Positions 14,601 through 40,150 of a stretch of 64,000 nucleotides of DNA are shown piece by piece. The notes under the pieces are model-generated. The model was not told the DNA's origin. It searched no databases and worked only from the letters and a program-made list of their open reading frames with translations. How positions within the stretch are numbered: the first letter of the stretch is position 1; every line of letters starts with the position of its first letter. Origin of the DNA: Pocillopora damicornis. Taxonomy: Eukaryota. The stretch spans positions 372,001 to 436,000 of the forward strand of contig NW_020845410.1 in assembly GCF_003704095.1 (NCBI RefSeq). Reading direction: 5' to 3'. The position numbers were made by a program, and so were the translations under genes.

Positions 14601-17600
14601 TTAACGCTTGACCAAGAAATTATTTTTCTAATTTTCTTTTCAGGTGCCGACGTATTTGGAGGATGTTGAAGATTTTCTTCGACTGGTTGATGAAAAGGCT
14701 GCCAAGTAATTAACATTCCTTAAATAAGAGTTTAGCGGTTTGGTTTCCAACGTTCAAACGTTTATACAGATGTAGTAGTCCTGAACTGAAGAGACCGTCG
14801 ACTTCACGGCAGATACTGTTAGTTAGCGAGCCAGAACACAGGAATTTCGAATCGAGGTCTCTTCAGTGGAAGGCCTTCAATTGTAGCTGCACTGATTGTA
14901 GGGAAAAGAGAGAGTGAACTAATAAATTCATTCTTAGACGGTTTTACGACGTAAAGTTTAGTTTTGCGGTTTTTTATTGAGTAGTGTTGTCAAAGTTCAT
15001 GTCCTAAAACTTTTAATTCACTCTTTCGAGTTATCAGTGCGCAACTAAAAATGTTGAATCTAAATCAAAGATCTAGCTCATCAGAATAAAGGGAATGGCC
15101 GACTGCTATCTCTGTTCAGCTTACCTAGCCATCGTTCCATTTTATTTCCAGAGACGGTGACAAAACCAAGCTGTTTTGTGATCTAACGCAGTTCCCTATG
15201 ATAATGAAATGTAATTTGGTGAGTCAGAGACCATTTTGTTCCAATAAATGTTCAAACAAAGCGCACAGTTTTTCAATTCACCTACTGTTATAAAATTTCT
15301 TCTACGTTCAATATGAATTGTTTAAGAGTTTCTTCGTTTATTAGGAAATTGAGAAGATTCTGACCGACTTAAGGAACCATCGTTCAGAGTTTAGACAGGT
15401 GTTACGACATCCATCTTTGGATTACTGCTGTGTTTCAGGAAACGAGGTATTTTCAATCCATTGTTTCGCTTTGCTCAGCTCAGGGAAGTAAACTTGAATT
15501 TTCTGAAGAGAAGAGTGAACATGTTGAAAATGAGCACGAATCGCAAATCAGCGCTTTAAACAGCCCCGAATGAACTGATCACAACGTCATAGGAACTGAG
15601 TTTTAACCAAAGTTTTTGTATTGTTTATTTCAGTTCTTAATCGAAGTAAGGAACACGAATTTGAAGACTGTGCCTGCCGACTGGATAAAAATAAGCGCGT
15701 AAGTCTACAGAACTCATTAAGCCTCTTCTCTTCGTTGTATCATTTAATAAAACGTTGCGTCTAATTTCCACTGATCATTCCGCCTTTAAAAAGAGTTGAT
15801 GAGTCATGTTTTCCGTGGGAAACAGTTTATAAGGTGCCTGATTGTAGTATTGCAAAGGAATAACTGCTTAATTTTGAAATAGTTTTTAAAAGATAATTCT
15901 GCTGCTGATACTCCTACCTTTGTCTTTAAACCTTCTCAAACTAAGGCTAAAAAGTTCTCACCAGTCTCTCAATCAATCATGAGCGAAATGTGAATCAAAC
16001 GCTGCCTAGTATTACAAACGTGGTCACTCACGTTTTTCCCGCGCTTTTAATAGATGACTTGCTTTTACCGCGAGCTCTCATTGGCTACTTGAATTGGAGC
16101 GCTTTTCGATTCATAAGACACAACCAAAGTTAACAGCAATTCGAACACAAGTTCATAAAACAAGGAGCCAATGAGCACTCGAAATATAAACAGGCAAACT
16201 ACTTGCAGCGCGGATAAACGCTAGGGACCAAGTCATTATTTGTCTTAGTTTTTTATCTGATTAGTTGAGAAGCTGATACAAGTTTTCAAAACCAGTCGTA
16301 GAGCGAAGAAAGGCGAACTAATAAAATCTCTAATCACTAACGAGTGGCCTTAACTTTTCAAAATTGTAACAAAGTACCCTTTGTGCGGTTTTAAGTAAGT
16401 TTTAAGTAAAATTCTCGCTTATTTGATAGCGGTTTGTGCAGTGAATAGCGCTGTGCGATTTTCGAACTACAAAATTTTCCGAATGGTTTTGTATTAAGGT
16501 ATTGATTTACTGACGATAGGTTCGATATGAATCACTTTTGTGTGTGGTTTTTCCAGTACGAAACAGGTGTCAAGATTCAGGACACCATTCGTAGAGGACA
16601 AGTTCAAACTTCTTTGCCAGTGGCGAGAACAACTGTCAATCTGCTGTCAGGAGGCGTGGCTAGAATTTCTCGCGCTCTTTTCGGAAGCGTGCGCAAGATA
16701 CCGGCGTGCCGTATGTCATATTGCCACGCTCGACTGCTTGTTCTCCTTGGCAACCGTGGCCAGTCAGCGAGGTTTTACCAGGTATGGCTTGTTATCAAAT
16801 GGGAAATATTTTCTATTTAATGTTGAATAAATGGTTGTTCTCACGGTGTGAGGTCACTTTCAATTAAAGAAAAAATGTGAAGCATTTTTTAAAGCCATAT
16901 CCGAGTTTGCTGTAAGAATTCAAACCCAAGCCCTATGTCGTCACGGTCCTGAGTTTGTCAGCATGGTGGAAGGGATTTTAGATTTGCCAACATTGCTGAC
17001 GCTGAATTTAACATCTTTTCTGAGAGAAAACAATTTTTATAATGAGAATTTGTTTTGAAATTCTCTGCATTCACGGTTCTTTACAAATTGTCCTTGTAAG
17101 TAATATCTCTATAGTGATAAACAGAGTTCTAACATATCCGCTTGCGGATTTGAATTATTCTGCTCGTACTGACTTTACCTCTCACTCGTTCGCCTCGTGG
17201 ACTCGAGAGAGATATCGTCAAAATACCTGACATTAGAATTCGATTTCAAGGAACACTTGTACAAATTTCCATTAAAATGTCATTCTTATGCGCACGGTAA
17301 CTGAAAGAAGGTTTTGCGGCGTAACTTTCGGTAGAGGGCCCTCTCTTGGTTTTGTTACCGTGGGAAATGTACTCGCCTTGCATTCTGTGAACTTATACTC
17401 TTTTCTGGCTAGCTCTTGAAAGTAATTTGTTAAGTACATTTGGACATCCGTCAAAGATTGCGATTTGAGTATTTTCCACTCGGCAGTTTCCGAAATTTTG
17501 CGGGATCGAAATGTAATAGGAGGGAGCTTTGCGTAATTTTCACTCGACAATAATTGAACTTAAGCGAGTTAAATTGATATATATTCTGAGCGAAGCGATT

Positions 17601-20600
17601 AGTCACCTTACCTCTTAGCTTGATGTACTTTAGAACGAAATTACATTTGCTTGATGCTCTGTTATCTTCAAAATGGGTGCTTAAAGTTTACTACTTCCCG
17701 AAATAATAGTTGTACGTCATATCAGATACTTATTTTAAGTGCTCTGCGCAAAAGTTTTCTATTCGGGAGTATATTACTTCTCTAGCTTCATACTATATCA
17801 AATCAGTTGAAGACTAAACAGAACCAACGTTTGCAAGAATGGTCATGAACACCTCTGATTTCGCTGAGGAACCCCAACTACGAACCTGTGTTATGAACAA
17901 AGTTGTCTGGAGCAACAGCTATGACACAGAAAAGACAAGCTTTGCCATCATCGCTATAATCCTCAATGGTCTTAGCATGCCTGTGATAATTCTCATGAAC
18001 GCGTTGGTGGTCGCAGCGGTGAAGACAACACCCAGATTGCGAACAAATTATAACTTTTTGTTGGCTTGTTTGGCAGGTACAGATCTGTTGGTAGGAATTG
18101 TTGTTCAGCCAAGTTTCATTGCCGTACAAATTAACGTTCTAAGGGGAATATCTTTGGAGCAATTCTGCCAACACGAAAAAGAGTTTTCTTACTTCGCTAT
18201 CATTCCCATTCTCTCATCTTTTTATCATCTCATCCTTATAAGTGTTGAGCGCTTTGTAGCGATAAAACACCCCTATCGTTACACCACTGTTTGTACTAAT
18301 CGTCGCCTGATTACGGCAGTCGCCATCTCGTGGGTCATGACTTGTTTGCCAACCGTACTTCACTCTCTTGACGAAAGATTACAACCGATAGTCAGAGCTT
18401 TTCGTGTTTGTTTTTCGATGTTTAACTTTTTCGTAATTATATTCTGTCATATTTCGGTTTACTTTGTGTCGCGTCGACATGAGAGTCGGATCAGATCGGA
18501 GCAAGTGTCACTGCAAGCCGCTGCTGACTTTGCCAAGGAGAAGAAAGCTTTGAAGACAACTAGAATTATTATACTGACTTTACTTTTGTGTATTCTGCCT
18601 CCTTCAGTGTATGGTTTGTTTTTGCGCATCTTCTCCAACAGCAGTAATTATGTTGTGACAGTAGTACATTTGAGTCATCCTGTCGTATCAACTTTTAGTT
18701 TACTTAATTCTGTTTGTAACCCGTTCATATACTGCTATAGAAACAGGACATTTCGGGGCAAATGCGTCAGGTTGCTGAAATTTAGATGCACATATCAAGG
18801 CACCGAAGAATATTGACTCTACCTACGTTTGTGATGGAGACATCTTAAAATTATTAAACTTTGTCCAAGTGTTGTTTTTTTTGGTTTTTTTTTTCTGAAG
18901 AGTGAAGGTGGTTGCCCTCAGTTGTGACGTTGTGTTCTTTTTGGGGGTTCTTGAAAGTTTAAAGTCCAAGTGAGGGCTGTTTCAAATTAATATTTGATCA
19001 CTCTACTGAAGGTAAAAGATTTAACGCACTTCCCATATCAGAAAGGAATTCAAGGTTGAAAAAAATTTCCTATCTTGACACGAAATAGCCATAAAGATAT
19101 CTTTGTAACCCGACGCCGGTAAAATATGCGTCCCTATTGGCTGACTTACTCACCAACTATTGGCTCATGAATAAGGTGTAGAAGATTCAGGGTATTAGCA
19201 ATTACACCTGTGTTTCAATAATTGTGCAGGTTTCTGGGAACCAACACTCAGTAAATTTTTTGCGGCTGCCAGTGATATCCATAATTGATTTCTCGAAAGG
19301 CTTCCGATTTGGTAAAGAAATAAGCTGCCCACTTGTATTTTCCGCTTCTCATTCTTTTCGGAATGGCAATTGAAATAATACACTAAATGAAATACGTCTT
19401 CATGCTTTGTGGACAGTTTCTTTACAATGTGCGACCTTTTTTACCTGGCGGTAATTCAAACACGGTACCGTCAGAAATGGTACTTGAGAATACTTTGCAA
19501 GAGTCCTATCATTTCAATCAAAATGAGATTTACATTGTGAAGTGCGATATTGTTCGTGTCTCTGATTGGATGAACGGTTTATTTTCGCAATCGTTCACTT
19601 CCAATCTTTAAAATGTGTCGATCAGCAAGAAAAAATCTCAGCATATATGATTTAGAAACATCATATCTTGGAAAGTGCTTGAACGATCACTATTTGCGTG
19701 TTGCGGTGCATCAAACAACGAACGAGTGAGCGCAGCGAACGAGTGAGTTTTTGATGCATCTCAACTCGTGAATAAAGATCGTTCGTGCGCACTTTGTGGA
19801 ATATTCTCCATTAAATGCGTCGTGGGGTGATTCTTTGTTACAGTGAGGTGTTATTCTGTTTTTGATCTATTGCCTGCTTGTCGAAAGTTGAAAATATTAG
19901 CTACTGAGCTACACTGTAAATTTAAGATAAAATATATTCATTTACATATGTATGGGGACAAAGTCTGCACTTCACGAAAAAAAATTTTTCAACGTATTAA
20001 GTGGTCATCAGAAGACACAAGCTTGCAAACGTTTATTTAAGGCGTTTCCGTAAATGTAATCATACGCTCCGCAGGAAAAAGTTAAATTTACCGAGAAATA
20101 TTCTAATGTAAGTGGCAGCATTGGGCTATTTATATGAGTAAAAAAGTCTTCATAAGCCGCAAACTTACTGCAGAGACAGAGGCTCATCATGTGCCTTTGT
20201 TTATGCGGTGTTAGTGAAGACATCACTTAGATTGCAAACAAATTATAACGTTGTTTTGGTTTGCTAGGCAGGTACAGATCTGTTGGTGGGAATTGTTGTT
20301 CAACCAAGTTTCATCGTTGCACAAGTTTATGTTATAACGGGCAGATCTCCAAAACGGAAACGTTCTTTCCTTGATCCTCGTTATTCCTATATTATCATCT
20401 TTGCATCACCTACCCTCGTAAGTGTAGTGCGCTTTGTAGCGATAAAACACACCTATCGTTATACAACCTTCTTTACTGCACGTAGCTTGACTCTCGTGGG
20501 TCTTGGCATGTTTGCCAACCTTCATTTTCTTGTCGATAGATTAAAGCGTACGATCAGAGTTTTTCGTGCTTCGTTTACATTTATCGACGTGCCTGTGATG

Positions 20601-23600
20601 ATTTGCTGTCGTATTTCGTGTCCCGTCGATATGAGAATCGAATCCGATCGGAGCAAGTTTCACCGCAGGCCGCTTCCAACTTTGTAAAGCTTCGAAGACA
20701 ACCAGAATTATTATACTGACCTTACTTTTGTGTTTAATACCCGTTTTCGTGTGTGCTATATTTGTTGGCATCTCATCCAACAGCAGTAAATATATTGTGA
20801 CTGTAACACGTTTGAGTCGTCCTGTTGTTGTAACCACTACTTTCATTAATTCCATTTTTAACCTGTTCAAATACCACCACAGAAATAGAATATTACGACA
20901 AACATGCAAAGCGTTGCTGAAAATGAACCGTGAATTTATAACGACGATTGATAACTCTTTCTTTTCATTTAACATAGACATTTAAAGTCTTTTCCATATA
21001 TATATATATATATATATATCCCTCTGTTAGAATAAACCTTTTTGAAACCTCATTGTGTAGTTTTTGACTACATAACAGTGTGACTTGCACGGAAAGGTGA
21101 GATGATATTTGTATCCTTCAAGTTTGCTTGAGCAACGCTCGTTTTGAAGGACAACGAAAAACTTCTCTTATCCGCTATATTTGTGAATAATTTTTGCTCG
21201 TATCTTGAACGCCCTTCCTGTTTTCTTCCATTTACCTTTTAGTCCCATGTCGAAAGTCTCAGTGATTGAGGTAAATTTCTATGGGAGAGCTCCCCGCCTC
21301 CCCCATCTCTACGGGCGCCCTATCAGGCGAGATTGAGTAAACTTCAGCAAGACTCAACCGACGAGCTGTGAAACAAGCGACAATTTAGTACTCATTACAA
21401 CCTTTTCAGTCTTGATTTTGTTGTTCCAGGCCTGTCGTAAAAGACTGTGAAGCCCATATTTACATTAAACAAGGACGACATCCAGTGTTGGATACACTTC
21501 TCTCAGAGAATGAACAGTTCGTCCCGAATGATACGCAAATGGATGTAAGTGAATTATAAATTACCAGGAGGTTTATGAGCACGGGCAGCAAGTTTGAACA
21601 CGAACAGAAAATTAAGTGAAATATTTGGCTACGTCTAAAGCACAGCAGAAATGTAAACCTAGGTGCGATTAAATTGAATTGAAAAACATGGCAACTGCAG
21701 TGAGGTATCCGCGTGTCTCTGATTAACAGGGTTCACGTAATTCTGGTCATTTGGGGCATCATTAGCTTCCTTTCCTTTCAATTGTCCAATAGGCGAGAGC
21801 TCAGTCCTAAACTCTCCCAACTAGAGTTTAAGGGAAAGTGATGAAAATGTCTGTTCTGTCGGTCTTGGAATTTGGAGTTTTCCGGGGAGATTCTGGGTTC
21901 GTGTTTAGCAGTACATAATTTGACTGCCGATTGTTCTCTTTGTAGGTCAACAGCAATCGCTGCATGATCATTACAGGACCAAACATGGGAGGAAAAAGTT
22001 CTTACATAAAACAAGTACGATTCTACCTTGAAGAAAGCAGTTGTATTCTACTGTCGTTGTTTTTAAGAAAGGTTAAATCTAAGTTAATTCACACTTTACT
22101 TCGCAGGTTGCTTTGATTGTTATTCTCTCCCAGGTCGGCTCTTTTGTACCGGCCGAAGAAGCACGGGTTGGAGTTTTAGATGCAATTTTTACCAGGTAAA
22201 AAATATTACCAAGCCAAAATTCATTTTTACGCTCGTTTGGTTTCTAGTCCTTTGTTACTTTTTGTTTCATTGCAATTACGTCATATATTGACAGGATGGG
22301 TGCCACAGATAACATTTACAAAGGACAAAGTACATTTATGGTTGAACTTCAGGTAAGTTGAAAATTTATTTCATTTTCATCTACAGTTAAGTCTGTTTAC
22401 TCAAGCCGGTAACGAGATAATAAAAGATTTAAAGCGACACTTCATTATGTTGTACGCACTTTGTGATTAGTTTAATTTAGCATTAAGATGCACACTGTAA
22501 CAGTTCATTGACCGACTATTGCTTTCGTTGCAGGAAACGTCTGACATCATTGCCCAGGCTACTCCTAAGTCACTTGTCATTCTGGATGAGCTAGGCCGCG
22601 GTACTAGTACCCATGACGGCACGGCTATTGCTTATGCTACAGCTCACCACTTCATAAGCAAGGTTGGTGTCACTTATGGCTGAATGAAGGCACTACTTCT
22701 CAGTGCAAAATCTGTAATTTGGCAATATACCATAATTGTGTGGGACGTTCCCTTCAATCCTACCAATTTTTCCCCACAGATAGCAAGCTTGACTCTGTTT
22801 GTAACACACTATCCGTCTCTTGCGGAGCTGGACGGATTATTCCCAAACCAAGTCACCAACAGCCACATGGCATTTATGACATCAGAAGAGCCAGGCGCCA
22901 AACACTGTGCCGATGGTGGGGAAGGCGAAGACAACAATGTCATGTCTCCCGTACCGTCAGTTACGTTTCTGTACCACTTGGTGAATGGAGCAGCCGCGAG
23001 AAGCTACGGGTTAAACGTTGCTCGCCTGGCGGGAATTCCCAATGAAATCATTAACACAGCAGCCGCAAAATCACGAGAAATGGAGAATTTGATCATGTCA
23101 AGACGGTGGGTACTTTTCAGTTAGATTAGAAGGGTTGTTGGCAGACTTTACCAAAGCTGCGAAGATGTTTGTCGTATGCAAATAAACCGTGAGTTTTCTA
23201 AGGAGCAAACTTGTGATTAGAATCGAGAGGTTTCTGATCGGTTTGTTGTCACTTGATTTTATGATAGATTTGCTTCGCTCTCAGTTTATACAAATTTTAA
23301 CCCAAGTACGAGCTGCTTTGACCCTTTTTAAAAGTCATTGCATTAGTTGACGGTTCAAACAACTGGCTATTGTCAGGATAGCTAAGAAATGCCCCTTGAT
23401 GAATTTCACACGACCCATTACTTTTCAGTTAAAGTTATTAATCGTGAGTATTTTTTTTTCTTTTAAGTATAGCGATATTTGATATCATCAGATTAATAAT
23501 GTTCTTATCTTTTTTTCCTTACAGATCCATCAAAACTAGTTTTCAGGAAATTTTCTCAAAGTCGCCAACAACGCGCGAAGTTATCGAGCAGCTGAGAACT

Positions 23601-25225: not shown

Positions 25226-28200
25226 ATGCTGTCCTTTCTCGTTGCTTTAGCTGTAATTACTTGGCCAGGATGTCTTGGCTCTAATAATGTGTACAATCTT
25301 AATGAACGGGACTTCGAAGGGTACATCCGGGACAAAGACATAATGCTGGTAGATTTTTACGCGCCTTGGTGAGTTGTACATGAAAACTTATTGACATTTA
25401 GAATCGTGCGTTAAACGCTTGACTGCGTTCGCTAGCTTACGATATTGTTGACTGGTACAAAAGAACATCTTCTTTAAAGGGCCTTTTCCCTCCCTTTATT
25501 TATCTACTCCAATTCAAATATTGTTAAAAGACAAATTAAGAGGTTTGTTATGCAAATGAGTTATTAAAAGTGCTCTCGCTTTCAATGCTGTTTCTTCATG
25601 TTTGATGAAGAATTATGCGTTTTTCACAGCCATTAGATGGGACTTTATGTATTTTCGTTCGTAATTCTAACGGAGTATAAGAAACGTGTTTCTTCTCCAA
25701 GTTAATAAACAGGCGGCAGGTAGATGGTCTTTCATCACATCCTTGTTTTGAAGAGTTAGAATGACATCGTGGGCGTCAATTGCAATGTTTTAGGAACATA
25801 GAAAATTCACGACAATGTCCAGAGAGCACAAAAGAAACACAACTCTGTGAGATCTTACCTGCAAACTGTAGACTCCAAAAAAAAATCATTAACTTCAAAC
25901 ATAACTGTTGTTTTAGTGACATGTGTTGTTGTTATTGGAGTCATTTTATCAATTATGTCAAGCTCTTTTTCAGTCGAGTGAATAGTTTTCTTGACATTTA
26001 TGAGTGGAAACCGTTCAGATCAAAGCAGAATCACGGGTGAATGTGACCCCACCAAACATTTTTCTCTACCTGTCTTTTTTATTCCTTTCAATCTATGATC
26101 ATGCACAGACTTGAAATGATCAGCCACCGTTTTGTTAATGGTGAAAGGAAAGATGGATTTGGCTGAGGTGTTTTACGACTTTGTCACCTCCCAATCCAGA
26201 TAACTTAGTGAGGTTTTTGAGAAGCTACGTTCGTGAAACACAGTTGAATGTATGGGAATATGTAACGATAAGAAGAATTGCAGCCTCCCAAATTAATAAT
26301 CATATAGTCCAAATAAGGTGGGATCGAGGATGTATACACGCTACCGAGACATGTCAATGGCACGCTTCGTTCAAGCGTGGATTTTTGTGTTGTTTTGTTT
26401 TGTGTTTTAGAGTTTAGAGTGTGGGAAGTGACCTCAAGGGTATTATTTCTCCTCAAGCAATTGTTTTATCTTAACTTCCGCAGATCATTAACTTTTTAGT
26501 AGCTTGACATTGATTTTATCTCTATCAGGTGTACGCATTGTAAAGAACTGAGTCCCGAGATTGATGCAGCCGCTGACCAACTCGCCTCAAAGAATATGTA
26601 TGTGTTTGCAAAGGTGAGTTCACCGTGCTTAGTACGTATGGGGAGGGGAGGGGGTTGTGTGCGATGTGAAATGTTGCTGCTTAAGGCGAAAATGCGGCTG
26701 ATGCATTCTAGCTTGGCACTAAATAGTTTGCCAGTTAACTTATATTTAGCTATCTATTCATTGTTTCATGCTTAAGTATATTTATTTTATTCATTTTCTT
26801 ATTTATTCTCTTGAAAGGTGGACTGTGTCAACGACGGCAAACAGTTGTGTCAGCGGTTTAACATACAGGGTTATCCCACAATTAAGTTGTTCAAGTATGG
26901 TCAATACGTTGGAGATTATGTTGGACAGCGAGACAGAGGTTAGTGAGTGAAGAGAGTAGTTACTATTCACTGCGTCGATGAAGGCTAAGAGGAAACTTCT
27001 ATGATCGACATTGTGACAGTGGAAATCGTGAACATATCATAAGTAATAAACCTTTGCAATATATTTTACTCTGCGCAGGCTCATTGATGCAGTATGTGGA
27101 TTCGGTGGCCTCAACGTTCTCGCAACGTGCACCGCTGGTCAACAGTTTGGCTACACCTTTGGCTCAGTCAATTAACTACAGGCCTCACGCTCAATTATTA
27201 GCTTCGCACCATGCTCCTGCAATTCAGGCAGCAGCCGCAGCCGCTGCGCCGACTTTCGCCAATCAAGCAAACATGCACGCGAAGAACCCATCTCTTATGA
27301 ACTCGTTTTACGGTGCGTCAGCGCATGCGCATCATCCAGCTAACCTGGCCGCTTTTCTGGGCAAGCAACAAGCGAGCCCAGACTCTTTGCAGTCGAAATT
27401 TGGTAGTTTGTCGTCACTCGACATTTATAGAGCTAAACTTAAAATGATCGCAGCCTACAAGAACTATCAGCGTCGCCTTAAAGAGTACAGAATGAAACTG
27501 ACGGCAAGTAAAGCAAACGTGAATCCCAATCCGCAAGCTTTTCCGGGCGCGGTTACTCATCCGCCTCGTCCCGGTGTAAATGCATTCGCTCAGCCCCAGC
27601 CTTATCGCGGGTATTATCGACCAGAGGCCCTAGCAGCCCAGAATGTGCAGATAAACCGTGCGTATCCCCAAGCTGGATACGGTGTGAATACCATGGGTTA
27701 TCCCAACCAGTTTGGTAGTCCTTACGGATATCAAGCTATGGCCAGTAGTCCGTATTACAGAAGTAAAATGGGTCACGGGAAAGAGCAGCATCTTGGGAAG
27801 CAAAGGAGACCTGCACCGCGCCCTGCTGCTGTCAGAAAACCTGCCTACAACCGTCGACCTGGTACAGCTCGAGTCAACAGCCAGGCAGCTTATTATAACA
27901 ATCAACAACACCAGCGACAGCAGCAATTTCAACAAGCTTTCCGGCAGCAATACAACCGACAGCCAAAACAACAGAGACAACAGTTCACACAGAAGTCACA
28001 ACAGCAGTTTCAACAGGAGCCACAGCAAAACCAGCAGCAACAGCAATTTCAACAGGAGCCACAGCAAAACCAGCAGCAACAGCAATTTCAACATGAGCCC
28101 CAGCAACACCAGCAAAAACAACAACAACAGCTTCAACAAGAGCCACAACAACAATTTCAGCAAGAGCCACGAAAACAATTTCAGCAAGAGCCACAGAGAG

Positions 28201-28791
28201 ACCAACAAACCTACAAGCAGCAGCAGGTACTTCCGCTCGGTATTAATTCTGAAACTCGGCTCTAATTTCAGGTGCCTCAAAATACATACCTCAATGAAAA
28301 AAATACATAGAATATAAGCTATAAGAAAAGGCCCTCGAATTCAAGCGACCGTTAAAGGCTTAGGAACACCGATGTTCCAAACGATTCAATCCAAAGATTG
28401 ATTTCTTTGTAACTTTCCATGTCTGTTTGATTTGCAGCAGGCTCAACCTGAGGAGAAGTTTCCTTTATCTCTCCCTGAACAGCCAAGCAGTGCGCCATCA
28501 AAACCAGACACTTCAGCTCTGAAAGATCTGAAAGCAGACATTGAGAGCGCCATCCAGGATGCCCTTAGGAATGCTGTCTCAAAAAGTGCACAGAAGGCTA
28601 AGCCCAGTGAGGAGGTACACGTTGATGGTGAAAGGGCTAAGCCCCAGGTCCCTGCAGCGTCTCCTGAACAAGTGGGATCTGGTTCTGGGGTCCAGACACA
28701 AAATACACCTCACCAGGGTAGCACTGAGGATGCTATGACTGGCGAGACCCACAGTGGTAGTGGGTCGGGTTTAAAACCTGAATCCCGGTGA
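25226..28791 (+). CDS. Secreted single thioredoxin (PDI a-type) domain protein with long Ala/Pro/Tyr- and Gln-rich tail (~616 aa)
   Basis: Exons 25226-25368, 26529-26613, 26818-26938, 27079-28226, 28438-28791 (1851 nt, in frame). Signal peptide MLSFLVALAVITWPGCLG; 'MLVDFYAPW|CTHCKEL'; 'FAK|VDC...LC..FNIQGYPTIKLF'; ends LKPESR with no KDEL. Confidence 0.85.
27900..28226 (+). repeat. Coding Gln-rich tandem repeat (QQFQQEP units)
   Basis: 39-bp unit CAGCAATTTCAACAGGAGCCACAGCAAAACCAGCAGCAA repeated, plus 24-bp units. Confidence 0.85.
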
Positions 28792-29356
28792 AGAGCTAAA
28801 TTAAGAGGCGAGAGGCACCTAACGTTATTCCGAGTATGGAACAAGGATGTTTTTAAACCCAAAATTGCTCTCTGATTTTCAGTGAAGGATTCTCTTCACC
28901 CTGGATTAATTAGTGACATTCTTTTTTGGCGTATCCAGGTTCAATGTTCCTATCAAATCAATCTGCAGGTGGGAATCGTTTGAACGTGATAGTCTTCGAT
29001 CCAGTGTCGTTATTTAGTCCATCGAAAAATCAATGAAATGCGTTAGAAAAGAAATATAATAATTTTATCAGTATGGAGACTTGTTGGCTCGACTGATAGC
29101 AATTCCTTGTCTTTTCATCACTGATTAAAACAATTTTCCTTCCTCTCTCTCATGTTGCGGAAGAAAACAGAAATAAACTATGAAGAATTAAAACGGCCAC
29201 ACTGCTAATTATAAATCTAATAAAATCATATTTTGTAAAAGTCGGAGTACAAATGGAAATAAAATAATTTTTTTATTAATCAGTGTTCTTTATATATGTA
29301 TTGGAAAGTTATTTAGCATATGTTTTCCAAAGAGTTTCAATGTGAATGATTTCCAA

Positions 29357-29518
29357 TCAACCCGCTACACCCAAACATCAGTATGCATATTCTCCATACT
29401 GTTCTCTATACACATCTTAAGAAGCTGACCAGGAGAAATTGTTCGGCAATCAAGAGCTACCCAAGTTGGTGATCATTTCCTTTATTACAGTTACCTTAAT
29501 ATTTGATTCAGGGGTTAA
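29357..29518. mobile_element. piggyBac-like MITE family 1, truncated copy
   Basis: Shares 'CATCAGTATGCATATTCTCCATACTGTTCTCTATACA...' with 37366-37570. Confidence 0.7.
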
Positions 29519-30586
29519 CGAATAATCTTTCTAGGACTCGGCAACAGACACGAGGCGTTACGCTGCACACGCTGACGACATCACTGCGCTTCTTCAATAA
29601 ATCCTCAGCTGATCACACGAAATTAAACCAGCTCAATGGGGAACTCAGTTTCGGATTGGTACAAAAATGGGAATTGTCTCCAAGATAAGGTCTCCGTGTA
29701 TCCCAAGGAAAATTCGCGATATTGAGTTCTCCAGCTTGTGTAGCAAAGTACCGTTTAATATCGATATCGAAAAGCTTGAGTATTTTTATTTGGCAAACTC
29801 GAGAGGACGAAAACAGACAAAATCCTTGCAAACAAAGTCAAATAAGAGCAGTTTTAGATCAATCAGTTGATAGAACTTTTAATTATCCGCCCATTTCACG
29901 GGATGCACATGATATGACTGTGATTTTCCATGCAGCCTGGGTGACCTTTGCCCTCGTAGTACCGACATTTGACTCGTCCATTGCACTAACTTGTGTTTGA
30001 GTTTATTTTAACCCAAATAATTTTATGTGTATCACAGTGTGAGAAACCCACCCTCAACGACTGCTTTTTTCTTGACACTGAGTTGATTTTTACTATCACT
30101 AAGATAAACAAATTCTACATTACCTGAACAGGTCACTTGTTTGATAATCAAATCACCGACAGGTTGAAATTTTAATTCAACAGTTAAGCAAAACTACACA
30201 CCTGTTGTAGGCAATCACCGTGAGAGAAACAATATACAGTAAACAGATATAAGACATACACGCAACGTGATAGTTAATAGAACAAGAACGTGAAGTAGAA
30301 AACATTTTTGGCCTGATTTTGATGGTAAATCAGTGAAAAATTCGCAAAACCAGATCTTTGGTGAAATAATACCGGTAATTTTGTGGGTGATACCACATTG
30401 ATCCCATTACTTACACTTCGAATAACGTGATGCAATACAAAAACTACTCATTGATTGGCGGAGGCGACAACATTAACCAATCAGAGTGCTCGAATATGAC
30501 ATATGAAGGGTAGAATGTGGAGTGCCTTAAATAAATATTTTCGATTTTCTCGTAAATCGCACCCGAATTCCTCAAACAAGTGAACA

Positions 30587-32187
30587 ATGATTGCGGCTAT
30601 ACTTTCCATAGCCTTGTCCCTTGTAGGGACAATTTTTGGCGCTCCAGCCGATCCAGTCTTCAAATTGACTGACAACGATTTTGACCATTTTTTGAAAGAC
30701 AAAGAGACAATGTTGGTGGACTTTTATGCACCTTGGTAAGTTTTGATTTTTATTTTTTGGTTCGTGCTCACAACATAACTGAAAAATGAAGAAGTAGTAA
30801 ACAAAGAATTTCATGGGCAAACTTTTAGAAAGACATAATCAGTTTCCCAAGTACACGGCTCAAACCTAGAGCGTCTATTTTAAGACAAACGGGTGATAAA
30901 GAATCAAGTTGTTTATAAGTTTACGGATGAGTTGTACGACAGGTAGGACATTTATATATGTCACAAAAGTTTTCGTCTGGCTTATGATTTATTTTTCCTC
31001 GATAAGAGTTAATCTTGCTTGTCATTGGTGTTTCTAATACATATTTTGACGAACTGTTTTAACCTTTTATTGCACTCAAAACATTTCCATTTTACTTCTT
31101 TAAAAGAAAATCGAATGAATTCCGAATTCTGTCAGTAACAAAGTCACTCCTTGACGCCGTGTTCTTCGCCACTACTAATAAGAAATTATTCTAACCAAAT
31201 TAGGTGGTATCTTAAGTGATAACTCAGTCCCCTCCCGACCTTTAACGTTTCTTGTTCAAAAAGGGATAGTGCCACTAAAACAAGGAACCAGTAAAAACAA
31301 ATGACAATGTAATCCACCCCTCCCCCTCAGGTGCAGCGACTGTGCCAGATTAAAGCCTGAGTTCGACAAAGCCGCAAATGATTTTGCTCGGAAGGGAAAA
31401 TTTGTTTTCGCTAAGGTTTGTATTGTTACTTTACTTAGAGCTATAGAAATCTAGTGCAAGGCCCCTACAGCCATGCAGTGCAGAGATGAAGAAGGGCATG
31501 AGAGTGGGCGAGTACTCCTTCATCTTCATAGACAGCTTAGCTCTCCATAGAACTTAAAATTATAGCTTTCCCCCTCATCAAAAGCCTATTCAACACGATT
31601 TCTCAAGAGATATTGTGATACGATTACCATATTTGCCTGATACAAGATAGAACTCAGGCCTCCTAAAGAATCGATTACTGTTCTGAACAGATTGATTGCT
31701 TCGGCGAGGGAAGAAGCATCTGCGAAAACAGATTCAATGTACACAGCTGGCCTCAATTGAAAGTTTTCCGCCGAGGTCAATATGCGGGAGAATACAGCGG
31801 AAACCAAGACAAAGGTAGGTCTGCAAGGCGTGTTAATGGTGCCCGAGTGTCTTCGTTAGTCATGTTCTCTTAATTAGTCAGCGGTGATGCTAATCATTAT
31901 ATTTTAATCAAGATAGGTATATCGTACTTATAAAAGATATTTCAAAAGATCTACTTCACTCTTTGATTAAATTTTCCTTTTCTTTTCCAGCTTCTATTGA
32001 AAGATTTGTGAGCAGCCTTATTAAACAAAAAGTGCCAGATAATATTGGTCAGGACCAACCCCAGGAAAACCCGTCGGCAATCAAAGAGAACCCGTATGGC
32101 CCCTGGTACCAAAACGGATGGACTTATACGGCAGTGAGTCCTGGAAATGTCCCTTATCAGAACCCACCCGGCTGGAAAAGAGGATAA
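30587..32187 (+). CDS. Secreted single thioredoxin domain protein, paralog 2 (~184 aa), Pro/Gly/Tyr/Trp-rich tail
   Basis: Exons 30587-30735, 31331-31415, 31691-31814, 31991-32187 (555 nt), with the same intron positions and phases as paralog 1. Signal peptide MIAAILSIALSLVGTIFG; 'MLVDFYAPW|CSDCARLKPEF'; 'IDC...IC..FNVHSWPQLKVF'; ends '...PYQNPPGWKRG'. Confidence 0.85.
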
Positions 32188-34297
32188 GGCTGAAAATATG
32201 CCCAAAAGAAATTAACACTTAACATAGACCCGCAGCAATTTATGAGAGCCTAATGATCAATGGCTACAGCAGTTCACTCATGGAAAAGAGGTCTAGTTTC
32301 CGTGCTAAACCATATTATTTCAACCATATTATACGCAGTCGCTGAACTTGTTAAAATGTTGCATTTTGAAGCGTGCTAGTAATGAGAAAATTATATGCTT
32401 TTTGTAAAAATTAATCGAGGGAAGATATTCCTTTCCTCTTAAGCCTGTTTATCTACTTTCGAACAATTTATTCCAACACTAGCATTACTTTAAAGTGAAA
32501 GTATTTCAAATGAATTTCTCTGGAATGAAAAATTTCAACTTGTCAATAAGTGTGCTAAGTTTGTTTTGTTTAATTAAACGCCAACTTAAGAGTTCTTTAT
32601 CAGATTTGAAATGGCCCCTGATATTGAGGCATCAAGAACACTTTCTCTTAGTCGTTACAAAATGGACGTTCGAACGTGTAAAAATTAATTTTTTTCTTCT
32701 GTCTAAATCTGCCATAAATCTGCCATAAATAGAGCAGCAGAAAAACTAGTGGCAACGGAGCTGTAGAAAAATTTGGTGTTGATTTACTGAAAAGCAGACA
32801 ATTTACAGAGTAGAGACTATTCTTGCAAGGAGTGAAAGCAACTAAAATAGACAAGAATCCAGATGAAGCAGATTCTAATCTCATTTCAGATCTGGAAGAC
32901 ATGTTAGGTTTCATAACTAATAAATTTGTTTCCATAAAGATCACATTCGACTGAACCAGAACAAATTTATCATTTTTAACGTGGAGCACTATACAACTTG
33001 AGTCAAACCAATTTGTAGGTCTTCCTGACACCCTAAGACCTAAAGTGCTTCGGTAAATCAGAGATGAATGTGAATCCAGGGATTGATGACCAGCGCATCT
33101 TTCACGGCGTTAGGGCGTACGGCCGCACACAGAGTTTTAACTTCAACAGACAATTAAGACAGGCAGAGATTTTGCGTTCAGCTGATGACAATAGGGAGGG
33201 GACTGAGTTATCACTTAAGACACAAGCTAATTTGGTTAGAATAATTTCTTATTAGTAGTAGATAATAGAGGATTATTATCGCCACGTTGGAATTTCCCGA
33301 GGACGGTGAAAATGGCGGGAAATATCACTGCCGAAATTGAGGCTTGTTTGATAACAAAAATTTACAGCTAAGAGCAAAAACTCAGAAAATTTAATATACT
33401 CTGTGCAATTTCAAGCCATCAGAAAACATAGCGCAAAATCTAAACGAACATTTTAAACACAATGTCTTAAGTGAAAAATTATGTTTAATCTGGTTTGAGC
33501 AAACAAGACTACAAAACAGCCCCATAACTAGTTGACTGGAAGTTCTACCTCCAATTCAAATAGGACGATTTTTATAAAAGTTATATTTTCAATGCACAAT
33601 ATTTCGACGTACCAGGAAAACGTGTAGTATTCCTGTAACATAGCCTCTCTAGTTCTAAATTTATCTTATTCTAAGCAAATTTAATTTATTTGGGTTCTTA
33701 GTAAAAGACGAGAAATGAAGAAAAAACCTGTTGACGGAATCACAAATATGCATTCTTTCAATGCAAAAATAGAAAACCAACAAACGAAAAAAGGTAGTCT
33801 GTAAAAGCTGGTTGTGTCCGCAAGTCCAGTCTGAGATGGAAAAGTAAAACAGAACGATGAAAAATTAATTAGATAATGATAAGAGGAATAAGAAATATGA
33901 TGAGTGCAATTCCCAAACCAAACTTTGAAGCGAGACTGTGAAAAATACTTTTTAGGTTTAATAGTTACATGTAAAGAGGTTCGGTTTTCCCCCTCTCGGC
34001 ATTCGCTTTTCAGTTTTTCATACCACAGAAAAGCAGTTTCTAGTTTTTCCTACTCACTTGTCTAAATAAATGCTAACCACTATTTCATGCCCGTTTAGAT
34101 CATAGCCCTCGATGCATTTTCGAATTTGAACCATTTTTATGCCGGTTTTCCGTTTCCTGTTAGACGAGGAAGCCTCTCTAAATATAAGTTGGTGGTAATT
34201 GAGCAACCGATTTATATTTATTAACGTCCCGAGAAAAAATTCTAGAACAATTGTTTCAGTACTGGCCTTACCAAGTTTCATTAGACATCCAAGATCG

Positions 34298-37200
34298 TCA
34301 CTCTAATGGCGACAATCTGACCATCACTACACCACTCGGGTTTACAATGGCATGGAAGCTTCCCATGAATGTCCCAAGTTCCTTGTGTTCAAACAGGTCA
34401 CGTGCCTTAGCTTTCTCAGCACTTAAACCAACCTGAAGGAAAAAAAAAACACAATTACTTCAGTCTATTAAATAATATGTTTTTATCTTTGATAACCTTC
34501 AACTTTTTGGGGACATTTTGTAAAGCAACATCATTAATACAATTACTCTATGTTACTAACCAATTTAAAACTTGCTTCCATAGTTTCAGGGGTAGACTCT
34601 GAGTGTGAAAATAACACCACAGCAACTGATCCATCAGACAAGGGCCGTGCCCAGATCTCTTGATTTCCATCCTGAAATAGCAAACAATAACATGGCATCT
34701 AAACCCAGTATGCATAATCTCCATACAGTCCTCAATACATTTCCTAGGGAGCTGACAAAGAGAATTTGTTTAACAATCAAGAGCTTCTTTAGTTGACGAT
34801 AATTCCATATAGTCTTGTGACTTTAATGTATGATTCAGGGGTGATATTATAAAGAGAAATTAGAGGCTAGTCTCTCTTAAGGGTTAACGAAAAACATACA
34901 ATAAAGCATTCAATGAGCTCAAATTCATAAGATTGTTTGAGAGAATGATCAGCATGAAATCATACCAGCATGTCAGCAACTCATAACTAATACCCTAAAG
35001 AGCTGAAGATATGAATTCCTTACCAGCAGAACTCTCCTTCCCATTCTCCCCAGTTTGTCCTGATTGACAGCTATCACATCACTGAAAAATAAACAAGAAT
35101 GGGTTTCTTCAAGTAACTGTTTGACTGACTGATTGATGGCTGGCCCTGTTTTGAGGTTGGCAGATACATTTAACCATTAAACTAGTACCTCTCAAGAAAA
35201 CATTTTCCAAATTTTAGCAGTTTTAGCTGCAATTTTATTAACTGATCAGAAAAACTCTTAGCTCCCAAATTATACATAAATTATTCTGAATACAGAGTTA
35301 ATTAAGAAGTCTCCAATTTACCCATTTTGAAGGATTTCTTTTGCCCATGGTGCAATGTTACGAAGATCAGTGGACATAATTAGGGGCTGAAAAAAGTCAA
35401 ATTACATTGATTCAGTTCACAACCACAGTTGATAGCCTTGAGATCATCTGATTTTAAACTATGAATACAGTAGAAACCAATTAACTCAAACTCCCTGCTA
35501 ACTCCAACAAAATCTGATGGATTTGAGACCATTTTTGAATCATTTACTGAAGCTAACTTGAACTTAGTTGACTCAAACTCCCTCTTAACTCAGACTAATT
35601 TTAATTTTCCCTAGTTCCAATTTACCATGATAACTCAAACTTAAGTAAAAAGGTCATTAAAATGTCTGAACATGGCTGGTTGACACATCCAGTATCTAGA
35701 TTACATTCAACTTGACTTCCCAGACTAAACAGTCATATCAAAAAGTTCATTTAAAACAAACTGAATGTGCCAAAATGACTATTGATTGTAAAAGAATGGT
35801 AAAACCATGATTCCTTATTAATCATTAACAGGATAATTCAAATTCAAATTTCATCCTGATTAACTAGAGCCCCAGTGTAACTTGCCTTATTTTTCATTTC
35901 CCTTAGGAGTTTGAGTTAGTGTGGTTCTATTGTATCTGTGATGTATTTGTGACAAAGCTAATAATAAACTTTAATAATAATTAATAAAACTTTAATTAAC
36001 TTTAATATATTTTAGTGACAAAGCATCATATACAATATTTCAACTTCTTCCCTTACTTATTCTGTCCTTGTGTAAGAGCTATCAAAATCACTGTTTGCCT
36101 AATTGTTCAAGTAAAATACACTATTCATCTATATAAAAGATACTTACAGATGCCATAACAGACCACAGAGCAAACTGTGCCTTTGACTGTTCAAAACTTA
36201 AACTGAAATCACCAATAATGAGCTGAAATAGAACAACATACATTCAAATAAATTCAGATTTTCAATAATCCTGATATGAATCTAAAATCAATAACAGGAT
36301 CAATTTACAAATCAAGCTCAACTACACCTGGGATAGGCATAAGCATAACCTTGAACACTCTGCATCCAGAGACATTTTTTTTTTATCTCAATAGCTTTTA
36401 GCTACTCCTCATACACCAGAAGATGAGTGAGATATCAGGATTAACTGTCCCCCTAATGGCTGTGAGGAATCAGAAACTCCTTAAAATCATTTTTTTCCTT
36501 TTTTTTTTCTTTTTTTCAGTGTAGCTGTGGTAATTAAATCATTTTATTTTCTTCACCATATCAGGGTCATTCCAGTTTCCTGGTCCTGCAACTGGAATCA
36601 TTTCATCTTGATGGTCACCATACCACTTAACAATTGATGTAACACTTTGCCAAGAATCCTGTAGAAAGATAATTAGGAACAAGATTAACATAAGTGTATT
36701 AGTATGTGAACTATTTCAGTTTATATGCTTTGTTTATAAACACAGTACCTGTATGTCATCGTAGTTCCTCCACAAATTACAGTTTTCAGCTATCCATGTG
36801 TAGTTAGGCTGTAAAATTAACACTGCATGTCATTTAATAGTCACATATAGCTTACATTACCAGTCTATTACTTTTAATTATAATTTATATGTGTACACTT
36901 TCTATCAAATTGAGCAAGACATAATAATTTATATTTTTCATAAAGGCTCTGTAGTACTGAAAAGTAACAACAAGATCATAAATGTTCATCTCACGCAACT
37001 TCCTCCTCAGCATGGAAGTCAACATTGTGCACCAAGAAAAATATCATAACAATGAATTCTATCCTCACTGTTTTCTTTGCACTTTGATAGGCAGGCCAGC
37101 TGCAGGAAAATACTATTGGTCTGCCTGTGTTGTTAAGGGCTTTAGTAACCATTGGGTAACCCGTATCCATTTTGTCAGGGTCACTGTAGCAACCATCCAG

Positions 37201-40150
37201 CTTTAAGTAATCAACTCCCCAGCCTGCAAATGTCTGAAAAGGAATCACTGAGTAAATCAAAGGGAATATAGCTCACATAAAGGCGATTACAAATTAATCT
37301 ATAAAAATGCATTTTGAAAAAGATATACAGAGCCCTTAAGGGTCAAAAATATTCTACACAGCACTTTAACCCTTTACACTCTAATATCAGTATGCATATT
37401 CTCCATACTGTTCTCTACACACTTCCAAATGTGCTGGCAAGGAGAACTTGTTTAACAATCAGTTGCTTCTTTAGTTAGTGATCATTTGCTTTATTCTCAT
37501 AACTTGAGTGTTTGATGCAAGGATGATGTTGTGGAGAGAAATTTGGATGCTAGTCACTCTTAAGGGTTAAAGGATAAAGAAAAAAATATAGATGCAATGG
37601 TCACTTGAAGTGTCAACAGACAAAAGTAAGGTCACCTCTCACTAGTACTGTTCTGAAGCTAAAATAACTTATTCGTAGCAACAAACAACCCAACGGTTAA
37701 CTTACATCCATGTCTTGTTGAATGTGATCAATGGTTCCTGGATATCCTGCACAAGTTTTTGTTCCATAATCTGAAGAATTGTAAGAAAAAAAATGTTTTG
37801 ACCAATTGTGAAGTTTGTGAAGTGAATAAGGAACAAATTATATATAATATCTTTACAGATGGTCTTCAATTCTTTAACTCCCTGAAGTGATCAACATGTT
37901 ACTTTCTCCCAATAATATCCATACATTACCCAACAAACAAGTAATGAGAAGACTCAAACTTATCAGGCGATAGTTGTTATCTTGATCTAACACCAAATTC
38001 TTGTACCTGGCATTGAAGTGTGTTCAAAGCAGCTAGAGAGAGGGGAGGGAAGGGGGGGTTAACAATCAGATCTTGGGAGTTAAAATGTAAATTGCTACCT
38101 GCATATATTCCCAGCTTTAATCCTTTAGAATGAATCTAAAATTAAAATACAGACAATTTTAGAGAAAAGTTGGTCTGTCTCTTTTAAAACTAAGAGAAAA
38201 ACACAACAAGAAAGCAACAATCCCACCAAATTTGAATTTTTAACAACCTTAAAAGCACTATAACAAACTTACAAAGTCAGCAAGAGCTTTCATTCCACTT
38301 GGAAATCTGCTAGGATCAGGTTGAAGCTGGCCATCAGCCGTTCGGTTGTGAGACATCCAACAATCCTACAAATCAAAGAGACTTTCATGAAGTGTCAACA
38401 AATTTTGACTTAATCCTTCTAATGTCATCACTGATAAACCACCTAAGTGCTAAACATGACAGAAAACCAGAAAGTAAAGCAATGTGAATGTAAAATCATG
38501 TTTGTTAAAGATATGTTTGTGAATTGAAATCTCTCCACAGCAAGATCAGAACTCTTTACCTTCTAATCATTCTGAGTTACCTGTAACTGCCTATCTGGTA
38601 ATAAATCTATACAACACTTATTAAATTCATGGAGAACACTTCCTCCCAATACATTAGAACCAACAAAATAATTGGTCCAAATAGTCTTTCCTCACAATCA
38701 GATCTCTTTAATTTTCCAAGTAAACCAAGCAACAAATGTTGATAAATTTAAGCCAAAAATTATCAAACCTTACATCAATAGATACATATTTATAGCCAAC
38801 ATCCTTAAAACCATCCTCAGCCATGCGAGTTGCCATATCCATGAATAATTTTTCACTGAAAAACAAACACTGAAAACACTGAAAACAGTAAAAGCAACAA
38901 AAAAATTTTAAACCATACCAAACTTCTCCATATTATAGATCAGCAAGGGTTTCAGATAAAAAATACTGCTGGTTAACCCCCACCAATAAGACTTTCCATT
39001 AATTGCCATCTGTTTAGCAGCTGCCATCAGACTCTCATGATTGAGTTTTGCCCTATAGCACAGCTGCCTATTGCATTATCAGTAGCCATTTACCGAAAAA
39101 TTTATGGACACCCCACTCAAAGGTAGTCAAACTAGATAAAACTAAAGGAAAAAAACTAACCCATCCTTTGTTTTTAAGGACTGTTAATAAATGTAAACCA
39201 ACAAATCAAGCAGTTACCCAATGCAGTTGTCTGGGTCATTTTTGCAGTCTGTGTTACAACGGAATCTCTCCCAATCCATCCATCCCACTATAAAAGGATT
39301 AAGAAATTCAGCTTTATTAATAGAAAGGGTGTGGGCCAATAGAATGCATGTGATCCCTTCTCTGCCAGGTAAAAGTGATCATTTATATCTATAGCAATGG
39401 TCACAAACAAACTTATAAGCCCCCCTAGGGGTAGGACCTCTCATGGGAAAATCCTGTATACATCCCTGATAAATCTCTAATGCCCTCTATATGGTGGAAA
39501 ACGTCACCTTGTCCCCAGAAAACTCCGGGAGAATTTATTAATTATTTTGAGCTTCATCTTGTCTGTCAACACCTGTTCAGGTAAACACCTCTCCTGCAAA
39601 GAGTGACTCTTCTTTGACCGAGTTCCCTGCTACTGAAATTTAGCCATTTTGCCGAACACTTACCTAATCTTTGAAGCAAACAACTTCATGTAAATGTGGA
39701 AAAGATTTCCGTACAACCCCATACTATTTTTGAACAAAGCCGTTGTCCAAAAGGCAATCTGCTCAATAAAGTATAGGGCTTTTCGGAAATCTTGCCAGCT
39801 TTCAGTTGACTTCTAAATGAAGTTCAACAACTTAATTTGGTAACAAAACAACAAAGAACTTTAGGGGAAAGAAATCAGCTAGCCTCACGGTGCGATAGAA
39901 GAAGACGAGAGATTTTAGTCGAGGACACTTAACTAGCTGACTACAAGTCAGTGATCAGCTGAGTATCATGTGATATAGAACCAAAACTGATCTGTAAGAC
40001 TCTGCCGAAAGTAGCCAAAAATTATCACATCAGCAACTCACTTGGTGGCGTTAAGGCTAGGCCATTGTTAAGAGACTCTGCAAAGAAGTTTTCCTGCCAT
40101 GATGCCATATAAAAAATCATAGAGAGCAAGCAAGACAATCTGGGCGCCAT
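34298..40150 (-). CDS. NAGA: GH27 alpha-N-acetylgalactosaminidase-like, copy A (14 exons)
   Basis: Signal peptide then '[10 protein letters not shown]|[15 protein letters not shown]', 'YVSID|DCW', 'TCAGYPG', nucleophile 'YLKLDGC', 'FSCSWPAY' (NAGA-type), acid/base 'WRNYDDIQ|DSW', 'NWNDPDM'; last exon 34432-34298 ends '[14 protein letters not shown]'. Confidence 0.9.
34701..34887. mobile_element. piggyBac-like MITE family 1 copy
   Basis: Similar to 37366-37570; ends CTCTTAAGGGTTAA. Confidence 0.7.
35468..35932. mobile_element. Tc1/mariner (pogo/Tigger-like) MITE
   Basis: TA-CAGTAGAAACCAATTAACTCAAACTCC ... GGAGTTTGAGTTAGTGTGGTTCTATTG-TA: imperfect TIRs, TA target duplication, internal AACTCAAACT repeats. 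Confidence 0.65.
37366..37570. mobile_element. piggyBac-like MITE family 1, full-length
   Basis: TTAA-CCCTT ... AAGGG-TTAA termini; related copies at 29357, 34701 and 47785. Confidence 0.8.
37868..38083. mobile_element. piggyBac-like MITE family 2 copy
   Basis: Similar to 7998-8187 (AAACTTATCAGG..TTGTTATCTTGATCTAA..CAGATCTTGGGAGTTA). Confidence 0.65.

Follow-up and report, generated by a model that had tools for sequence, protein, structure and literature searches.

We analysed a 64,000-nucleotide stretch of the genome of the coral Pocillopora damicornis (NCBI RefSeq assembly GCF_003704095.1, contig NW_020845410.1, positions 372,001 to 436,000 of the forward strand; hereafter the window), in which two genes, here called gene 1 and gene 2, lie in tandem and each encode a protein with one thioredoxin domain resembling the a-type domain of protein disulfide isomerase (PDI). 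A prediction made earlier from the letters alone had described the pair as apparently exported proteins with rewired active sites and low-complexity tails. Here we report the structure of the two genes, their likely origin from the gene of PDIA3 (ERp57), and a tentative role in cnidocytes, the stinging cells. Coordinates are positions within the window unless stated otherwise, and both genes are on the + strand.

Gene structure and splicing

Gene 1 has five exons (25226-28791) that form a single open frame with a product of 616 amino acids, and gene 2 has four exons (30587-32187) and a product of 184 amino acids; 1795 bases separate them. The spliced gene 2 product is a 100% match to the stored protein P0192, which its source names Pocillopora damicornis PDIA4-like. 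RNA support comes from contigs of 4 runs (of 22 listed), with splice joints counted among the rows listed. All three introns of gene 2 are joined in 4/4 runs, as are introns 1 and 4 of gene 1, and intron 2 of gene 1 is joined in 3/4. For intron 3 of gene 1 the joint is absent from the rows listed; the lengths of two RNA contigs (1324 and 1315 letters) are compatible only with splicing, and we thus take this intron to be spliced as well. The stop codons of both genes lie inside uninterrupted RNA contigs that extend into untranslated sequence. The splicing of both genes had been predicted correctly, as had the active-site and cis-Pro motifs (Table 1), while the fourth intron, in the tail of gene 1, had gone unmentioned. 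A four-exon form of gene 1, ending at 28265 (511 amino acids), was superseded by the five-exon form from the RNA contigs. A six-frame scan for WCxxC gave zero matches, because the Trp codon is interrupted by an intron.

We could also rule out a pseudogene or a chance open reading frame, given the splicing and the conservation of the gene 2 domain, where comparison with the coral transcript L029 gave a proportion of differing nonsynonymous sites (pN) of 0.066 versus 0.80 for synonymous sites (pS; these sites are saturated). Low-depth RNA contigs (3-15 versus 14-446 at the joints) were also seen over introns 1 and 2 of gene 2 (30737-31330 and 31416-31690), and possibly represent unspliced or retained forms, or DNA. 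Between the genes, at 29360-29500, lies a short, very abundant repeat with a contig depth of tens of thousands in the RNA runs.

The order gene 1-then-gene 2 is kept in both main stony-coral lines: in Montipora, Oculina and Acropora the two genes are modelled either as a fusion or one after the other. The fused RefSeq models (P0001, P0181, P0204 and P0210, from Montipora capricornis, M. foliosa, Oculina patagonica and Acropora muricata) raise the question of whether genes 1 and 2 are halves of one read-through, two-domain protein. We consider this most improbable, as all three fused models inspected (P0001, P0204, P0210) contain an internal second signal-like stretch, and Oculina and Acropora also have separate models. 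Moreover, the gene 1 contigs pass the stop into the 3' untranslated region, the gene 2 contigs start independently, and no linking joint was found among the rows listed.

Domain architecture

Each product has one thioredoxin domain (Pfam PF00085, matched in P0003 and P0186; Thioredoxin E 6.7e-24), and the two domains are 46% identical. The AlphaFold model of gene 2 has a predicted local distance difference test score (pLDDT) of ~80-90 across residues 21-130 and <50 in the tail, and its Foldseek matches are PDI a-type domains, with root-mean-square deviations of 1-2.6 A within the top ten. Both proteins and their orthologues have a hydrophobic N-terminus (judged by hydropathy only), and signal peptides are predicted. 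Past residue 25 neither protein has a membrane helix (best 19-residue Kyte-Doolittle values 0.85 and 0.19), neither has an N-glycosylation site, and a KDEL-like end is absent from both and from all of the family C-termini listed (0/14). Further 3', the RNA contigs and hydropathy revealed no extra domains, membrane helix or KDEL, rare splice forms being possible. The picture of a single domain with neither a KDEL-like end nor a transmembrane anchor was thus borne out by Pfam, by hydropathy and by the position of the stops within the contigs.

Active sites

The CTHC/GYPT motifs of gene 1 and the CSDC/SWPQ motifs of gene 2 align to the same columns of PDIA3. In the gene 1 clade, CxHC (x being T, S, P or H), GYPT and the Arg before the last helix are present in 4/4 rows, as in PDIA3. 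In the gene 2 clade, Asp replaces the His of the CxxC motif in 10/10 rows (CSDC in 9, CGDC in 1), and the same 10/10 rows, from stony corals to the soft coral Xenia, have Trp before the cis-Pro, by a change from Tyr, and Gln or Glu in place of the Arg. The Asp and Trp changes are absent from 16/17 other rows from the coral's own genome, and the seventeenth is likewise without Asp and Trp; the catalytic Arg is kept in all but two of these 17 (one has His, one is truncated).

Among 564 domain matches in the fetched set, CGHC was the commonest motif (326), and other CxHC forms were common as well (CPHC 19, CSHC 13, CTHC 6, CHHC 6), these being partly members of the family under study itself. The 45 CSDC matches in this census are mostly near-copies from fetched clusters and not independent. 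The idea of rewired active sites consequently stands for gene 2, with its three fixed changes, and was ruled out for gene 1, since the second residue of the motif varies among its orthologues and other CxHC forms are common in the census.

In PDI sites, the oxidising character comes from the His of the CxxC motif; the residue preceding the cis-Pro adjusts the redox potential and the contact with substrate, and re-oxidation is aided by the Arg. Because three substitutions are fixed in gene 2, it is a sound inference that the two active sites differ in chemistry. With an acidic residue by the thiolate and no Arg, the gene 2 site would probably be more reducing and stay longer in the dithiol form, and would favour breaking or reshuffling of disulfides over net oxidation. 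The original prediction of a duplicated pair with different potentials holds to the extent that the pair is old and the difference in chemistry soundly inferred, with the correction that gene 1 departs little from the usual PDI a domain.

A different view of gene 2 would be that it is not a redox enzyme, and that CxDC and the neighbouring Trp form a metal-binding or substrate-holding site of a chaperone or sensor. The three departures from the PDI catalytic set are fixed jointly (10/10 rows), and CxDC recurs in single domains of two multi-domain relatives described below (P0150 and P0030), both of which would fit such a function. We nevertheless find it quite improbable, as gene 2 retains both cysteines, the preceding Trp, the buried acid/Lys pair (Asp or Asn with Lys) and the cis-Pro, and the fold is intact in the model.

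Origin of the pair

A Pfam search of the Pocillopora damicornis genome gave 65 thioredoxin-like exon matches; the main PDI loci were aligned with a spliced aligner, and 25 other domains of the genome were modelled. The three intron positions that genes 1 and 2 had been predicted to share were confirmed by spliced alignment. They lie in the Trp before CxxC (phase 2), after AK (phase 0) and near the domain end (phase 1), corresponding to profile positions 29, 58 and 95. All three sites were found in 1/25 of the other domains, namely the a domain of PDIA3. The PDIA3/ERp57 gene is located beyond the window at ~446250-456190 of the same contig (G000:C2045; L002, L003), on the minus strand and thus opposite to the pair, ~42 kb past gene 2. 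It encodes two CGHC domains and a KDEL-like end, and was identified from its b and b' exons, for which human PDIA3 was the best match (E 3e-13 versus 1e-5 for PDIA4; a second comparison was less discriminating).

A third paralogue lies on another contig (G000:C3334; L009:4847-5002 and L006:2130-6920). It has a single domain with the same three introns, a signal-like start, CPHC, Leu before the cis-Pro and a short tail without a KDEL-like end; its intron 2 holds long runs of N, so that hidden exons are possible. A GRIM-19/NDUFA13 gene follows it. For all three paralogues the PDIA3 a domain is the top BLAST match outside the family (106, 90 and 99 bits, versus 85, 76 and 85 for the next). Genes 1 and 2 also have in common with this domain a second cysteine pair with C-x7-C spacing, which occurs in 44/416 distinct census entries, 39 of these from the family itself.

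In the trees, the gene 1 and gene 2 clades, orthologues included, are recovered as sisters within one starred clade, with support of 97/93 in a 48-row tree and 96/88 in a tree with multi-domain relatives. Together with the third paralogue they form a starred clade in a 25-row tree (98/95), which is not recovered in the 48-row tree. The trees left out six domains of the genome (poor spliced alignment or distant type) and L023, an intronless PDI-like frame (G000:C2698) that has HEQC and CELC where the usual motif would stand; the 25-row tree and the tree with multi-domain relatives also omitted four rows of the coral's own genome that were long or partial, three orthologues that were near-duplicates, and further extras. 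The multi-domain relatives are P0150, from the anemone Actinostola, with three catalytic domains (CPYC, CTDC, CFYC), and P0030, with four (CGFC, CIHC, CPYC, CCDC), both without a KDEL-like end. They join the third paralogue (94/90), and the whole set has 89/94. No orthologue of P0030 was found in the Pocillopora damicornis genome (best matches 28-45% identity). Non-standard sites (CEYC, CSHC, CVHC) were also seen in L007 (G000:C295), which is TXNDC5-like by similarity.

Mainly on the basis of the introns, the C-x7-C spacing and the genomic position, it is likely that genes 1 and 2 descend from the PDIA3/ERp57 a domain by partial duplication of its first exons. The trees tell somewhat against this descent, in that a sister grouping with the PDIA3 a domain is weak (81/67 in the 25-row tree and in the tree with multi-domain relatives), unresolved in the 48-row tree and absent from a 538-row FastTree. 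The pair shares the three intron sites, the C-x7-C spacing and the contig with PDIA3, its best BLAST match in the genome, and gene 1 also the CxHC, GYPT and Arg. Unlike PDIA3, the pair has no b, b' or a' domain, no retrieval end for the endoplasmic reticulum (ER), and new tails, and gene 2 has CSDC, WP and no Arg. A PDIA3 orthologue would have the layout a-b-b'-a' with two CGHC sites, whereas genes 1 and 2 have one domain each. The family tree that had been suggested as a check thus gave no orthology to an ER PDI, the true PDIA3 being a separate gene. An origin from PDIA3 exons would point to a truncation independent of other single-domain PDIs. For ER-stress promoter elements, matches to the commonly known patterns were found upstream of none of the three paralogues, nor of PDIA3, and this comparison is uninformative.

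Tails and distribution

The two tails differ greatly in length. In gene 1 the tail makes up 485/616 residues, is free of cysteine, and consists of a basic region (31 Lys/Arg versus 5 Asp/Glu, with 19 Tyr), then a stretch that is 57% Gln, and finally an end rich in Ser and Gly. Two blocks are almost invariant between Oculina and Acropora and are drawn as helices by a low-confidence model; we discarded this predicted structure of the gene 1 orthologue, as its quality was too low (mean pLDDT 32). The gene 2 tail has 53 residues, among which Trp, Tyr and Pro are conserved among stony corals; it had pN 0.21 and pS 0.71 against L029. The tails of the orthologues in Xenia, P0145 and L031 are unrelated to that of stony corals. 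Neither tail has a second copy in the genome, a Pfam family or a usable Atlas match. The description of the tails as low in complexity applies to residues ~391-500 of gene 1 (57% Gln), and fails for the remaining gene 1 tail, with its conserved blocks, and for the gene 2 tail, which is not low in complexity and is under selection.

Orthologues of gene 2 were found in Pocillopora, Stylophora, Orbicella, Oculina, Desmophyllum, Acropora, Montipora and the soft coral Xenia, and also as P0013, P0145 and L031. The latter two branch below Xenia in the 48-row tree and may be medusozoan. The trees place the duplication into genes 1 and 2 below the entire gene 2 clade, before the origin of stony corals, and it is well supported that, by this branching, the duplication predates the split of soft and stony corals. 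The best 150 of 18,216 matches in a wide search (ranked by total score, which favours multi-domain proteins) included 6 single-stretch matches, all from this family, which we call the mini-PDI family. Its named members are all cnidarian among the matches listed, a restriction to Cnidaria being unproven. Database labels are of little help, as the Acropora gene 1 is mislabelled as a bromodomain-containing protein and gene 2 orthologues are mostly labelled PDIA4-like.

The size of the gene 1 tail, basic and rich in Tyr, Pro and Ala and then in Gln, with two conserved predicted helices, would also be consistent with gene 1 being mainly a structural secreted matrix protein (of capsule, mesoglea, mucus or skeletal organic matrix), covalently linked by its thioredoxin domain, with gene 2 as the sole catalyst. 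The occurrence of gene 1 orthologues in stony corals only, in a narrow search, fits this idea. We judge it unlikely, because the active-site cysteines, His, cis-Pro loop and Arg are kept in 4/4 gene 1 rows, as expected of a working catalyst, because the tail is basic and cysteine-free, whereas typical skeletal matrix proteins are acidic, and because the duplication is placed before the origin of stony corals. The aragonite skeleton is likewise an unlikely target of gene 2, since an orthologue is present in the soft coral Xenia.

Other features of the window

The exons of both genes and their untranslated regions are listed in Table 1. Elsewhere, the window holds a tandem pair of BTB-BACK-Kelch genes (246-6731, -) and a MutS-family gene (~8600-23100, +), which we take to be MSH3-like. 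Within the latter, on the same strand, are an intact single-exon rhodopsin-type receptor (17818-18816) and a broken second copy (~20270-20990). Alpha-galactosidase-type exons, possibly from more than one copy, lie at ~36990-49700 (-), followed by a charged 630-codon exon with no Pfam match (50934-52826, +) and a repulsive guidance molecule exon (62817-63527, +).

Table 1. Features of genes 1 and 2, in positions of the window.
Feature	Position	Strand	Evidence
Gene 1 exon 1: start codon and predicted signal peptide of ~18 aa, then the opening strand and helix of the thioredoxin domain, to split Trp codon	25226..25368	+	joint 25368/26529 in 4/4 RNA runs
Gene 1 exon 2: active site CTHC (26530-26541) and next helix	26529..26613	+	RNA joints
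Gene 1 exon 3: C-x7-C (second cysteine pair), GYPT loop of the cis-Pro (from 26869), conserved Arg	26818..26938	+	alignment, translation
Gene 1 exon 4: last domain helix; basic Ala/Pro/Tyr-rich region; Gln-rich repeat region (~27900-28226)	27079..28226	+	RNA contigs, alignment
Gene 1 exon 4 basic region: conserved, predicted helical block	~27366-27500	+	orthologue alignment; low-confidence model
Gene 1 exon 5: amphipathic helix (predicted, conserved), end rich in Ser and Gly, stop, no KDEL-like end	28438..28791	+	211-base intron joined in 4/4 runs
Gene 1 3' untranslated region, to RNA contig limit	28792..29245	+	RNA contigs
Gene 2 exon 1: start codon, predicted signal peptide (~18 aa), thioredoxin domain start	30587..30735	+	joint in 4/4 RNA runs
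Gene 2 exon 2: active site CSDC (31332-31343)	31331..31415	+	joints in 4/4 RNA runs
Gene 2 exon 3: C-x7-C (second cysteine pair), SWPQ loop of the cis-Pro (from 31745), Gln replacing conserved Arg	31691..31814	+	alignment, translation
Gene 2 exon 4: last helix, then a tail of 53 residues (Pro/Gln/Asn/Gly) in which Trp and Tyr are conserved, stop, no KDEL-like end	31991..32187	+	RNA contigs, alignment
Gene 2 3' untranslated region; contigs continue ~1 kb past 32700	32188..32700	+	RNA contigs

Discussion

We propose, at a probability of roughly 0.45, that genes 1 and 2 encode catalysts of disulfide chemistry that accompany cysteine-rich cargo along the late secretory route, most probably in stinging cells during capsule construction. 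The observed base of this proposal is the gene structure and splicing, and a single domain without a KDEL-like end or a membrane helix. The pair likely goes back to a partial duplication of the first PDIA3 exons; a second duplication, before soft and stony corals diverged, then gave genes 1 and 2. Going by general PDI enzymology, gene 1 (CxHC, GYPT, Arg) would act like the ERp57 a domain and form disulfides, while the more reducing site predicted for gene 2, with CSDC, a Trp preceding the cis-Pro and the Arg lost, would re-oxidise slowly and lend itself to disulfide breaking or reshuffling. With the b and b' domains missing, the new tails would provide location or substrate grip, and gene 1 would be anchored by its long tail, basic and Gln-rich, in a protein matrix as this condenses. 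As cargo we would expect minicollagens and related capsule proteins, polymerising by disulfide reshuffling in a Golgi-derived vesicle.

The wall of the nematocyst hardens outside the ER as minicollagens swap internal for interchain disulfides, and to our knowledge it is not settled which enzyme, if any, drives this reshuffling. We favour the cnidocyte role because a reshuffling enzyme without a retrieval tag is what a Golgi-derived reshuffling compartment would need. Minicollagens are reported to polymerise by disulfide reshuffling (PMC4863159), and cnidae are described as Golgi-derived (bioRxiv 10.64898/2026.06.23.733813). Nematocyst proteins as cargo have indirect support in the literature from Nematostella, for which three cnidocyte-specific PDI-like genes confirmed by in situ hybridisation are reported: NVE15732 (47-fold, the first row of its table), NVE15733 (22-fold, labelled PDIA4, as gene 2 orthologues are in most databases) and NVE26200 (9-fold) (PMC6161364). 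Two consecutive ids and one elsewhere resemble the coral tandem pair plus one paralogue. The likeness is one of ids, labels and gene count, and the passages on the Nematostella genes mention neither a domain layout nor an active site or a missing KDEL; they propose ordinary folding of toxins and structural proteins, which differs from the role suggested here (PMC6161364).

Several points weigh against our proposal, in addition to the weak placement beside PDIA3 in the trees. The assignment of the coral genes to cnidocytes would be indirect, via the Nematostella look-alikes, whose orthology is guessed from their ids and labels and from the number of genes; the consecutive ids could also be one gene split in two. 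Furthermore, NVE26201 is ODF3-like according to the same study (PMC6161364), and no such gene was recognised beside the third paralogue. The redox direction of CSDC is extrapolated from what is generally known of other thioredoxin-fold proteins, a narrow search for orthologues of gene 1 gave only those of Oculina, Acropora and Montipora, and the model of the gene 1 orthologue is unreliable. Finally, ER retention without KDEL exists, partner-based or thiol-based, so the missing KDEL is no proof of export.

This last point leads to the view that the two proteins serve secretory cells at large (gland, mucus and others) as helpers that reside in the ER or cycle between ER and Golgi, held by a partner or a free thiol, somewhat as AGR2 for mucins. 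The signal-like start, the PDIA3-type domain and the intact PDI active site of gene 1 would all fit, as would the 2 tail cysteines in each of the gene 2 orthologues P0171, P0212, P0182 and P0013, and the presence of transcripts in bulk RNA from four studies. These cysteines are, however, missing in Pocillopora, Stylophora, Oculina and Xenia, and the family C-termini listed are without a KDEL-like end, which PDIA3 of the same genome has kept. If the Nematostella look-alikes are orthologues, their cnidocyte-specific expression (PMC6161364) would also argue against such a general function, which we regard as rather unlikely. Returning to the stinging cells, a more specific version of our proposal is that tag-less mini-PDIs, cut from ERp57 before the soft/stony split, enter the forming capsule, where the CSDC/WP enzyme would be the catalyst of minicollagen reshuffling and its long-tailed CxHC partner a wall-matrix oxidase; this we put forward with considerable doubt.

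Single-domain members of the PDI family are known (ERp18/TXNDC12, AGR2/3, TMX1-4 and small plant, fungal and protist proteins), with one secretory thioredoxin domain and often an unusual CxxC. TMX1-4 have a membrane helix after the thioredoxin domain, which hydropathy does not indicate in genes 1 and 2. ERp18 and AGR2/3 were not among the best 60 of 252 PDB matches, and PF13899 was under the cut-off. Fungal and plant clusters of 140-190-residue thioredoxin proteins are Atlas look-alikes of the family (0.90-0.93), and since small PDI-like proteins thus exist in fungi and plants, the coral pair is not alone in its single-domain layout. Cone snails have a conotoxin-specific PDI, a lineage-specific duplicate with altered CxxC motifs that serves cysteine-rich secreted products; it is a full four-domain ER protein, in contrast to the single domains without a retrieval end seen here. 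What is new in the coral genes is the apparent origin from PDIA3 exons, together with a fixed CxDC/WP site without Arg. Our literature search found no description of CSDC with thioredoxin terms, nor of the accessions, most subscription journals and supplements lying outside this search; the genes may already have been seen as expression markers and left uncharacterised.

The family has been obscured in databases by labels such as PDIA4-like and bromodomain-containing protein, or by fused models. Gene 2 offers a natural triple change of the thioredoxin active site, namely CxDC, Trp before the cis-Pro and no Arg. Stinging cells aside, the pair would be a clean case of new secretory redox enzymes arising by truncation of ERp57. 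With respect to the nematocyst, the question of capsule reshuffling becomes directly testable with a domain that is small, soluble and easy to express, and whose active site is fixed across stony and soft corals.

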